Positions 5,009-7,102 of a stretch of DNA of 41,326 nt are shown in pieces. The position numbers and the translations under genes are program-made. The stretch lies in the IMG/VR virus record IMGVR_UViG_2718218397_000001; one strand, 5' to 3'. The DNA is from a virus. Taxonomy: Duplodnaviria > Heunggongvirae > Uroviricota > Caudoviricetes. The notes beneath the pieces were generated by a model. It ran no database searches. It was not told where the DNA came from and saw only the letters and a list, made by a program, of their open reading frames with translations. Within the stretch, counting starts at the first letter, position 1; every line of letters begins with the position of its first letter.

Positions 5009-5305
5009 TCAGTCATTACTGATAGCGCCATAGCGTGAGCGGTAATTACGCAGGCGCGGGTCGATATATTCAGGGAAGTGGGTATATGTGGCTTTGCGGA
5101 ATGGTCGGATTGATGTCTGGTAAATTCGCTCTCGTTCTTCTTTCTCTGCAAGCCATATACAGTGGCGAAATTCCTTTTCCTCTTTCGTTTCCTGCGGTAG
5201 CGACATTATCAGGTCGTAGTTTTTTCTGAATTTATCCAGCACCTCCGATACGGAATTGCCGGAACAGCGGCGCGGGTCATCCGCACCATACAGAGGCGCT
5301 GGCAT
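5009..5305 (-). CDS. Hypothetical protein (98 aa)
   Basis: ORF with aggaga SD directly downstream of the exonuclease gene. Confidence 0.45.
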   Translation of the reverse strand: MPAPLYGADDPRRCSGNSVSEVLDKFRKNYDLIMSLPQETKEEKEFRHCIWLAEKEERERIYQTSIRPFRKATYTHFPEYIDPRLRNYRSRYGAISND

Positions 5306-5321: not shown

Positions 5322-5870
5322 TTATTTAGCTAATTTTTTCCAGATCGCTGAAACGTATTTGGCTTGGTGGATGGCATCATCAAGCGCGTTGTGGCGAGTT
5401 CCTTTGAATGGCATATCTCGCTTAGGATCGAATCCTATTACCTTCCCAAGTTCGACGATTGTTCTTACGTCGCGGTCATTCCACCACTGCCACGGAACTG
5501 GCTGCCCTGTCAGCGAATAACTGTTGCGGAGAATAACGCAGTCAAATGATGCTCCATTCCCCCAAACCTGAACGAATTTGTGGTTAGCGTTCTTTATGAT
5601 GAATTCAGATAACCATGAAAGAGCCGTTGAAAGCTCCTGAGTGTTGCTGGTTAGCGATTTTCTGGCTTCTTCACTCTGTTCCATCCACCATAAAATCGTT
5701 GAAGCGTCAGGACGCGCTCGATATCGCATTGATGATTCAAGCGAGATATTTACCGAGAACTCTTCTCCTGTTTCTCCGGTATTCGGGTCAAAGAATACCG
5801 CCCCAATAGAAATAACAGGCGCGTATGGCCCGTTGCCCATTGTTTCAAGGTCAACCATTAAGTGATTCAT
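5322..5870 (-). CDS. DnaQ-like 3'-5' exonuclease (recombination module)
   Basis: 182-aa ORF starting MNHLMVDLETMGN (DEDD exonuclease motif I-like), next to SSB and annealase. Confidence 0.7.
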   Translation of the reverse strand: MNHLMVDLETMGNGPYAPVISIGAVFFDPNTGETGEEFSVNISLESSMRYRARPDASTILWWMEQSEEARKSLTSNTQELSTALSWLSEFIIKNANHKFVQVWGNGASFDCVILRNSYSLTGQPVPWQWWNDRDVRTIVELGKVIGFDPKRDMPFKGTRHNALDDAIHQAKYVSAIWKKLAK

Positions 5871-5878
5871 GTAAGTCC

Positions 5879-6394
5879 TTAAATTGCGTGAATAGCGTGA
5901 CGAGGGAAGGGGAGAGTTACTGGTGCAAAGGGTATATCGTCGTCAAAATCCATAGGTGGTTCGCTGTGATTCCCTTGCTGCTGAGGTTGCTGTCTTTGTT
6001 GCTGACCGTTATTTCGCTGAGGTGAAGACTGTTCATTGCCTCCTTGCTTGCCACCAATCATTTGCATAGTTCCACCAACGCCCACGATGACTTCAGTAGT
6101 GAACCGATCCTGTCCGCTTTGATCCTGCCATTTTCTTGTCCGCAATTTGCCTTCAAGATAAACCTCAGAGCCTTTTCGCAGATATTCGCTGGCAATTTCT
6201 GCCAGTTTCCCGCTCATTACCACGCGGTGCCACTCCGTCTGCTCCTTTTGCTCTCCAGTTTGCTTATCACGCCATTGTTCTGACGTAGCAACTGTAAGGT
6301 TTGCAAATGCCGTTCCTGATGGTGAATATCTGATTTCTGGATCATGCCCAAGGCGACCAATAATGATCACCTTATTTACGCCTCTGCTTGCCAT
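5879..6394 (-). CDS. ssb: Single-stranded DNA-binding protein with 15-aa extension after the DDDIPF tail
   Basis: Strong similarity to E. coli SSB along the OB fold and acidic tail; ORF continues past DIPF as [15 protein letters not shown]. Confidence 0.85.
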
Positions 6395-7102
6395 TTATGC
6401 CGCCTGTTTTAGCTCGTTAACTCTGATGTTCATTACCTGAACGCATTTAGCCTGCGCCTCCTCGTTTCCAGCCATTAATTGCCAGTCACGCTGATAACGC
6501 TCGATGAGTTTTTTCTTATCAGTTTCTTTCGATGCATAATCGCTGAAGTCTTTCAGGATTTGTTCGCAGTCAACCGATGGAGATTTCTGGTTGGTATTTT
6601 CTGGTGATGGTTTGTTATCTGATGCTGGGATTGCCCAGCCGGGCAGCGTTGGAGGGAGCCAGTAAAACCCTGTTCCATCCTTCAGTTTTGCCCTGTGCCA
6701 CCCCTGCTTTTTATCGAGAGATGTTTGTGCGAAACCTTCCTCAAGGTTATACAGATACCGACCGATTCCCCATTGAACGGCAGCGCGCTTCATTGCACCG
6801 GAACGACCACCTTTGACGGCTTCTACTTGCGTGTTTTCAGCAGCATCCCATTTGGTTACCCATTCGGAATCAATCTTGATTGATATGCCGCATTCAACTC
6901 CGCCGTTGTTGGGAATATCGCGGTATTCATTGCGCCATCCTGCTTTGCCGCAAACATCGTCCAGGCGTTTCATGATTGCCCTGTTCGTGACATAAGCCAG
7001 CACCATAGCCCACACTTTTCCATCGCGTGTTTTACCGCTTTGCTGTATTCGCCATTCGATATCTTCAGGGCTGAATGGCTCATCGAATTTATTCAAATCC
7101 AT
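6395..7102 (-). CDS. Rad52/Sak-like single-strand annealing protein
   Basis: 235-aa ORF with KGGRSGAMKRAAVQWGIGRYLY motif, positioned where lambda carries bet. Confidence 0.6.
   Translation of the reverse strand: MDLNKFDEPFSPEDIEWRIQQSGKTRDGKVWAMVLAYVTNRAIMKRLDDVCGKAGWRNEYRDIPNNGGVECGISIKIDSEWVTKWDAAENTQVEAVKGGRSGAMKRAAVQWGIGRYLYNLEEGFAQTSLDKKQGWHRAKLKDGTGFYWLPPTLPGWAIPASDNKPSPENTNQKSPSVDCEQILKDFSDYASKETDKKKLIERYQRDWQLMAGNEEAQAKCVQVMNIRVNELKQAA

Follow-up and report, generated by a model that had tools for sequence, protein, structure and literature searches.

Mobile-element single-stranded DNA-binding proteins with a conserved 15-residue peptide beyond the DDDIPF tip

The window analyzed here, a stretch of 41,326 nucleotides (nt) from a virus of the Caudoviricetes (IMG/VR record IMGVR_UViG_2718218397_000001), contains a gene for an SSB (single-stranded DNA-binding protein) with an unusual C-terminus. 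According to the list of open reading frames (ORFs), the minus-strand ORF 5879..6394 represents a complete gene of 171 codons with an ATG start and a TAA stop. Residues 6–105 matched the Pfam SSB family PF00436 (E-value 2.6e-38; 130.7 bits against a cut-off of 26), and a disordered linker rich in Gly, Gln and Pro followed by an acidic tip, a feature of the family, was present as well. A cluster of 171-residue E. coli proteins (1,030 member sequences) shared 97% identity with the window SSB. By domain match and architecture, the protein is thus a bona fide member of the PF00436 family, as the first-pass annotation of the window had recognized from the OB fold, the Gly/Gln linker and the DFDDDIPF motif. 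Its identity of 60–70% to characterized SSBs suggests that it would form tetramers and bind single-stranded DNA (ssDNA), and we predict the gene to encode an intact, functional SSB.

SSB is the central organizer of bacterial genome maintenance, and the proteins that bind it are taken to recognize a ...DDDIPF sequence with a free C-terminus. The tip of the window protein, MDFDDDIPF, is spelled with the same letters as the end of the E. coli SSB chain 1eqq_A, and the chromosomal SSB of E. coli shares the same OB-fold domain, type of linker and acidic tip. In the E. coli protein, however, Phe is the last residue, and its alpha-carboxyl group is bound by the pockets of partner proteins (PMC10238739), whereas in the window protein this Phe is residue 156 of 171. 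Measured against the canonical SSB C-terminal peptide (SSB-Ct), in which Phe is the C-terminal residue, the window SSB therefore falls outside the rule, with 15 residues beyond Phe156. The DNA was read to place the Phe156 codon (TTT) at 5929..5927, the 15 additional codons (GCA...ATT) at 5926..5882 and the TAA at 5881..5879, all in one frame and with no stop codon between Phe156 and the TAA. Together with the ORF list, this reading bore out the 15 in-frame residues, hereafter called the appendix, that had been noticed initially.

We found the appendix to be widespread. Of the 120 clusters closest to the window protein in a collection of 5.8 billion protein sequences, 116 (74–97% identity) shared the 15-residue ending, so that the alignment with relatives proposed by the first-pass annotation revealed conservation. 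The hosts of these clusters were E. coli, Klebsiella, Citrobacter, Salmonella and Enterobacter, and the linker varied freely among them; three canonical proteins ending in ...IPF and one aberrant sequence made up the exceptions. A 1.8-kb segment covering the surrounding gene module matched 438 of 5,426 complete E. coli genomes. The intact junction, counted with a 90-nt probe over tip, appendix and stop codon at a coverage of at least 80%, was detected in at least 298 of these genomes (about 5%). Isolated phages carrying the appendix included HK75, mEp235, mEpX2, epsilon34, g341c, ECP1, HZ41 and NM-3, and records covering at least 80% of a query of tail plus appendix numbered about 169 for phages and 123 for plasmids. 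A degenerate DNA pattern encoding DIPFAPxxLP, which fixes appendix positions 1, 2, 5 and 6, retrieved 120 viral contigs. The complete proteins among them all showed exactly 15 residues past the Phe, except for an obvious chance match with 36 residues; a coincidence of this extent is far from what random matching would produce. When the same pattern was applied to one genome per species (596 Gb), most matches were due to chance, as expected, and were filtered by reading frame. True matches occurred only in Enterobacterales, namely in Providencia, Proteus, Moellerella, Trabulsiella, Kluyvera, Buttiauxella, Lelliottia, Atlantibacter, Enterobacter and Escherichia. A Myxococcales metagenome-assembled genome (L195) contained an SSB-like ORF with a 6-residue extension, the only case outside the gammaproteobacteria with an acidic tip in front, which probably fits the search pattern by coincidence.

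Pooling of the variants yielded the core [AS]-P-phi-x-L-[PQ]-[FY]-[PG]-x-x-x-phi-[HY]-x-phi-COOH. The sole length variant among complete proteins was a 14-residue form in one small cluster (P0123), and the last five residues were never charged (AIHAI, AIYVI, SIYAL, FIHCI, LLHVI, FMHVI, AIHAL). A search with the last 33 residues in a representative library, where clustering at 50% leaves full-length extended SSBs represented by canonical ones, returned 11 fragment clusters only, with new sequence variants but zero new scaffolds. One 120-residue protein (P0122) joined an N-terminal part lacking SSB similarity to the end of the linker, the tip and the appendix; it may be a product of rearrangement.

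Furthermore, the appendix was not confined to one type of protein. It was carried by E. coli-like PF00436 SSBs, by divergent PF00436 SSBs with only 33–37% identity to the window protein, by phrog_743 'SSB' proteins of 243–277 residues without a Pfam domain, and by a 406-residue phrog_4477 protein of lytic rV5-like phages (Vequintavirinae) without any Pfam match. The SSBs of the IncN conjugative plasmids pTR4 and pKPC_CAV1596-97 ended in tip plus appendix, and SSBs of Vibrio phages terminated in APVGLQYGRNLLHVI or APVGLQFGKKFMHVI. This comparison of sequences showed the appendix to be portable among at least four unrelated ssDNA-binding scaffolds in phages and plasmids of Enterobacterales and Vibrio. 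The phrog_4477 protein, annotated as a 'hypothetical protein' and encoded where the block of replication genes ends in Klebsiella phage Seu621 (L001:1864-3084) and other Vequintavirinae, exhibits a duplicated acidic tip plus the appendix and is probably an unannotated ssDNA-binding protein of these phages. The tail-plus-appendix search also reported a second tail-like place in Vequintavirinae genomes; a canonical SSB-like tail was sought in the first 50 kb of Seu621, where only the extended one was present.

To assess selection, 93 distinct DNA sequences were compared by the Nei–Gojobori method. In the tip, the ratio of nonsynonymous to synonymous change (pN/pS) was 0.07, compared with 0.27 in the appendix and about 0.63 in the linker. 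Positions 1, 2, 5 and 6 are invariant by construction in sets derived from the DNA pattern, where all synonymous codons were in use at these positions. They were likewise retained in the independent protein search and in the Vibrio variants, the only exchanges being A/S at position 1 in the former and P/Q at position 6 in the latter. Positions 7 (F/Y), 8 (P), 10 (H) and 12 (I), which lie outside the pattern, were preserved through several synonymous codons. These substitution patterns demonstrate purifying selection on the appendix at the protein level, and we regard it as almost certainly a selected, functional C-terminal module. The C-terminus would then be an undamaged, conserved composite interaction peptide made of an acidic tip identical to that of the host and the appendix.

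The first-pass annotation had offered the loss of a stop codon in a decaying prophage as an alternative, and had named a sequencing error or frameshift hiding a stop after DIPF, or a rare strain-specific mutation, as what would undo its observation. Textbook SSBs do end at Phe, but nothing beyond this speaks for an accident of this kind. The same frame and length recurred in hundreds of independent genomes, in isolated phages and on plasmids, and the neighboring module is intact. Conservation across genera, phage families and plasmids under purifying selection contradicts loss of a stop codon. An error in the sequence is contradicted by the intact junction in the E. coli genomes counted above, and a rare mutation by its frequency there and by its presence in several genera. 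We therefore give this explanation practically no weight. A pseudogene or decayed prophage gene, that is, a lineage-restricted lesion under relaxed selection, was also ruled out by the wide spread, the invariant length and the pN/pS value of the appendix.

Canonical and extended tails nevertheless occurred side by side among near-identical phages. The SSBs of phages P1, Sf6, ES18 and Huey are likewise element-encoded and of the E. coli type, but end at ...IPF; those of Sf6, ES18 and Huey share 92–93% identity with the window protein in the part common to them and belong to the same Rad52/Erf-like–SSB–Abc2 module. Homology of the window with Sf6, IME10, N7, Bas106 and Huey extends through the SSB body, breaks off after Met148 and starts again with the Pro codon in the appendix; an HNH endonuclease gene fills the gap. 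The SSB of Sf6 (gp27) ends in a differently coded NFDDSDIPF-stop, and gp26, the endonuclease, begins nine nucleotides further on and ends in an orphaned appendix, its last 14 codons being identical to the DNA of the window. The endonuclease of Huey is 48% identical overall to gp26 and has the same C-terminal end. The codons in front of the orphaned appendix (AAACCTATCTACCCAGACGAGGAA) resemble a scrambled version of the old PPMDFDDD tip without the DIPFA codons. A scrambled old tip together with a recoded replacement is as expected of a target-destroying homing cassette. The derived alleles of Sf6 and Huey resemble free-standing HNH homing cassettes with a recoded gene end, while the allele of the window is uninterrupted and free of an endonuclease. 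A different HNH gene, AT-rich and T7 gp7.7-like, follows immediately after ...NFDDEIPF-stop in ES18 (L004:2687-3300) and in the Salmonella phages 103203_sal5 (L254) and S135 (L255), with no remnant of the appendix left. Each of the five canonical ...IPF-stop alleles that were examined from this module had an HNH endonuclease gene after it, and all endonuclease-free alleles examined carried the appendix. Insertion of endonucleases thus explains the mixture of tails, and the tail-coding DNA appears as a recurrent target of homing endonucleases. In Vibrio phage D53 (L128:872-1926) and many near-identical phages of the D series, the tail is split into ...DFDDD-RS-stop and a subsequent in-frame DIPF-stop by a 9-nt insertion (CGGTCTTAG), and a related HNH gene is located some 80 nt downstream, apparently a further case in which disruption of the tail-coding target goes along with an endonuclease.

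These insertions raise the question of direction. The 15 codons could be a by-product of selfish DNA, i.e., the C-terminus of a homing endonuclease that was fused to ssb when the endonuclease was deleted and was kept alike by repeated gene conversion, with no part played by selection on SSB. The shared DNA at the ends of Sf6 gp26 and the Huey endonuclease agrees with this idea, and a recurrent insertion site would explain the constant position after DDDIPF. However, relatives of gp26 located outside an extended ssb lack the peptide: the one of Vibrio phage D53 ends in ...GEGKNAL, and Pectobacterium homologues align to residue 151 of 159 only. This indicates that the endonuclease invaded an ssb gene that was already extended, and not the reverse. 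Diverged forms with 8–10 of 15 identical residues and many synonymous codons, the occurrence on four scaffolds and on plasmids without a nearby endonuclease, and the pN/pS value are further points against the by-product, so that it is largely refuted and in our view very improbable.

The genes around ssb were considered next as possible partners. In the window, the order of the co-directional genes is Rad52/22-family annealing protein, SSB, exonuclease and Abc2 (Table 1), with the assignment of the downstream gene as an exonuclease corroborated by PF16473. The TAA of the Rad52-like gene abuts the ATG of ssb as TAAATG (window 6394-6397). The ATG of the exonuclease gene lies at 5870, 8 nt past the SSB stop, and the SSB TAA overlaps the AAGGA of the exonuclease gene (window 5868-5881), an arrangement that shows, at the level of the DNA, a tightly translationally coupled recombination module. 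The overlap of the extension with the Shine–Dalgarno sequence claimed in the first-pass annotation held in part: AAGGA (5880..5876) covers the last two bases of the stop codon, but none of the sense codons of the appendix. This gene order recurs in a chromosomal locus of E. coli with 99.3% identity and in Sf6, HK75 and ES18, with N, cIII and kil located upstream in each case. Judged by gene order, the locus is the early-left recombination operon of a lambdoid/P22-like prophage.

Table 1 Features of the SSB locus; positions refer to the window unless another locus is given
Feature	Position	Strand	Evidence or remark
SSB gene	5879..6394	-	ORF list, PF00436 match
OB-fold ssDNA-binding and tetramerization domain, residues 6-105	6080..6379	-	Pfam; AlphaFold 2 (AF2) beta-barrel plus one helix
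Gly/Gln/Pro-rich linker, residues 106-147, disordered	5954..6079	-	sequence; low predicted local distance difference test (pLDDT) score; variable in homologues
Acidic tip MDFDDDIPF, residues 148-156, internal	5927..5953	-	sequence; pN/pS 0.07
15-residue appendix, residues 157-171	5882..5926	-	sequence; conservation; pN/pS 0.27
TAA (5881..5879) overlapping Shine-Dalgarno-like AAGGA (5880..5876) of next gene	5876..5881	-	DNA reading
Rad52/22-family single-strand annealing protein, upstream of SSB	6395..7102	-	PF04098, E 4.9e-26
Rv2179c-like 3'-5' exonuclease, downstream of SSB	5322..5870	-	PF16473, E 2.8e-73
Abc2 anti-RecBCD protein, last gene of the recombination module	5009..5305	-	PF11043, E 4.4e-63
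HNH cassette straight after ssb Met148 codon	L002:2490-3050 (Sf6), L127:1440-1990 (Huey); corresponds to window 5882-5953		supplies NFDD(S)(D/E)IPF-stop in recoded form

The neighbors of extended ssb genes varied considerably. Downstream of ssb lies the exonuclease gene in the window and abc2 in HK75; HK75 and Sf6 lack the exonuclease gene, and the appendix-coding DNA is still there. The gene after ssb is convergent both on IncN plasmids (SprT-like protease) and in rV5-like phages (tail fibre gene). Extra codons serving translational coupling or regulation of the downstream gene were therefore ruled out. The annealing protein beside the extended SSB belonged to the Rad52/22 family in the window and to RecT in a Providencia prophage; a Proteus prophage as well as Vibrio phage V039C had ERF at this place, and a Trabulsiella prophage had a Sak4-like AAA ATPase; none of the annealing proteins was found beside ssb on IncN plasmids, and none was annotated near the rV5-like gene. 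A similar pairing is known from phage HK620, whose SSB is encoded beside its partner, the annealing protein Sak4, and requires its C-terminal residues to stimulate annealing and recombineering (PMC5928155). That SSB, however, is only distantly homologous, lacks the appendix and has NDYPPF as its free terminus, while the appendix of the window type adjoins four families of annealing proteins. The appendix thus tracks neither the downstream gene nor the family of the annealing protein, and the idea of a phage-encoded partner was rejected in view of these differences. Because neighbors and annealing proteins vary, a dedicated partner encoded by the element is unlikely, and any partner of the appendix is probably encoded by the host. 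The common denominators of the carriers are ssDNA and the host clade.

Two of these neighborhoods deserve a brief description. The Trabulsiella guamensis prophage, located by an integrase (L150:478-2601), combines a DnaQ-like exonuclease, the Sak4-like AAA ATPase and an appendix-bearing phrog_743 SSB and represents a different recombination module, with a large cytosine methyltransferase-like gene next to it. In the IncN plasmids pTR4 (L125:1939-3287) and pKPC_CAV1596-97 (L126), the extended ssb is convergent with the gene for a SprT-like zinc metalloprotease and adjoins the antirestriction genes ardA and ardR.

We then turned to the structure of the tail. AF2 models reproduced the OB domain as a beta-barrel with one helix and assigned the linker pLDDT values of 30–34 in both runs. 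With an alignment of 35 sequences, short strands appeared at residues 159–160 and 166–170, and the pLDDT of the appendix reached about 53; with 119 sequences the value fell to about 30 and the strands were gone. A sequence search of the PDB with tip plus appendix matched canonical SSB tips only: the E. coli SSB chains deposited there end at DDDIPF, and no chain holds the appendix. One could imagine that the appendix folds back on the tip or the OB fold and acts as a cap that hides DDDIPF until ssDNA is bound, or that it bridges tetramers and thereby promotes cooperativity. The strands of the first model, whose pLDDT stood above that of the linker, would fit such a cap, and the alternating hydrophobic residues, the P/G-x-x turn and the hydrophobic end are compatible with a hairpin; autoinhibition by acidic tails is, moreover, established in other SSBs (general knowledge, discussed in PMC5928155). 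Since the weak strand signal was lost in the deeper run, intramolecular docking was discarded as evidence. In addition, the scaffolds PF00436, phrog_743 and phrog_4477 have no detectable mutual homology, and a shared docking surface in cis is therefore unlikely. We consider a cap distinctly unlikely. The appendix is predicted to be disordered, and we treat it as a linear motif whose folding would require a partner.

Taken together, we tentatively favor the interpretation that the appendix is a switch of partner selectivity, although we consider it slightly less likely than not. The suggestion of the first-pass annotation that an internal DDDIPF may alter the set of partners is reasonable. With Phe in an internal position, the free alpha-carboxylate would be missing that is bound by the canonical pockets of host proteins such as ExoI, RecQ, RecO, chi, PriA, PriC and RNase HI, and ssDNA coated by the SSB of the element would recruit the general SSB interactome of the host poorly. 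The small residue–Pro kick after the Phe, the alternating hydrophobic residues and the uncharged C-terminus could provide a second contact that steers the tail to one host protein conserved in these bacteria. A number of points weigh against this interpretation. Masking of the Phe alone would allow any sequence, so that the strong conservation needs the second half of the model. The perfectly conserved DFDDDIPF shows that the tip is still in use, and conceivably it still docks in the canonical pockets, with the chain leaving over the basic lip. The variants of the appendix follow the lineage of the protein at least as closely as the host, without a clear signal of co-evolution with a host partner. 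Finally, Sf6, ES18 and Huey are viable isolates without an appendix on their SSBs, indicating that it is not essential.

An extension of the same idea, which we regard as possible but doubtful, is that the bipartite motif, an internal SSB-Ct of the host type plus the appendix, turns the SSBs of these elements from hubs of a general kind into dedicated hijackers or high-affinity blockers of one host protein of genome maintenance. Such a target might, for instance, be a nuclease or helicase that depends on SSB, or else the restart primosome or the clamp, and the ssDNA of the element would thereby be protected or privileged.

The extreme C-terminal position, the fixed length and the composition of the appendix would also fit a degradation tag that sends the SSB of the element to an AAA+ protease (ClpXP, ClpAP, FtsH or Lon). 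Non-polar C-terminal residues destabilize cytoplasmic proteins, as in the ssrA-like and MuA-like signals for ClpX. All variants are free of Asp, Glu, Lys and Arg in the last five residues, and the tail is disordered, which is necessary but not sufficient for such a tag. A tag would be portable between unrelated proteins, as observed, and is tolerated on the HNH endonuclease; no element-encoded partner would be needed. In this way, an SSB that disturbs the host and may be toxic could be limited to a short period after infection, induction or plasmid entry. A tag, however, need not be joined to DDDIPF, yet the appendix was found only directly after the tip with an invariant [AS]-P junction, if the products of endonuclease insertion are set aside. 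Conservation also reaches positions 1–8, far from the C-terminus, and the appendix is present on lytic rV5-like phages, for which a timed removal is less obviously useful. Both the tag itself and such a time limit hence seem unlikely to us.

The same hydrophobic residues recall the hexapeptides that bind the beta sliding clamp. Residues 2–7 of the appendix (PVTLPF, PIGLPY, PVGLQY) could represent such a motif and tether the host clamp or replisome to the ssDNA of the element, where it would support complementary-strand synthesis or annealing at forks. The arrangement phi-x-L-x-[FYL] with Pro at position 5 resembles QLSLPL, a strengthened clamp-binding motif from a study in which a change of Q to A gave the deliberately weakened variant (PMC3664792). 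The anchors V/I, L and F/Y are present, the location in a disordered terminus is usual for such motifs, and both plasmids and phages would presumably profit from priming and elongation on ssDNA. Hexapeptides of the QLSLPL type are likewise short, disordered terminal peptides with a phi-x-L-P-phi core (PVTLPF in the window). The key Gln, however, is absent from all variants and is replaced by an invariant Pro, and eight more conserved residues follow. The second half (x-R/K-H/N-x-phi-[HY]-x-phi), which is conserved to the same degree, would be left unexplained, as would the obligatory fusion to the IPF of the tip. The pattern phi-x-L-x-phi is, besides, generic for any peptide that forms a beta-strand. 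We thus rate recruitment of the clamp as improbable.

The appendix seems to have escaped attention so far. No relevant paper was found with its peptide strings in 8 million full texts (subscription journals lay outside this search), and a keyword search of the literature on SSB tails returned work on canonical tails only. The sole prior notice found was the annotation of the Sf6 record, according to which gp26 shares 14 residues with 'E. coli SSB'. The appendix-capped SSB tail of mobile elements is thus absent from the searchable literature and breaks the working rule of a free terminal Phe. Annotation pipelines label all of these proteins plainly as 'single-stranded DNA-binding protein' and thereby hide the difference from users. 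For SSB biochemistry, the appendix represents a ready-made separation-of-function tail. In recombineering, portability from host to host is limited by how well annealing protein and SSB tail fit each other, and the capped tail bears on this problem as well. Should a hijacking or blocking motif indeed be at work, it would constitute a new class of SSB-tail interaction and a natural reagent for dissecting the SSB interactome. The capped tail suggests that mobile elements tune the access of host enzymes to their ssDNA, which would matter for recombination in phages, the establishment of plasmids, induction of the SOS response and anti-phage defence systems that sense SSB.

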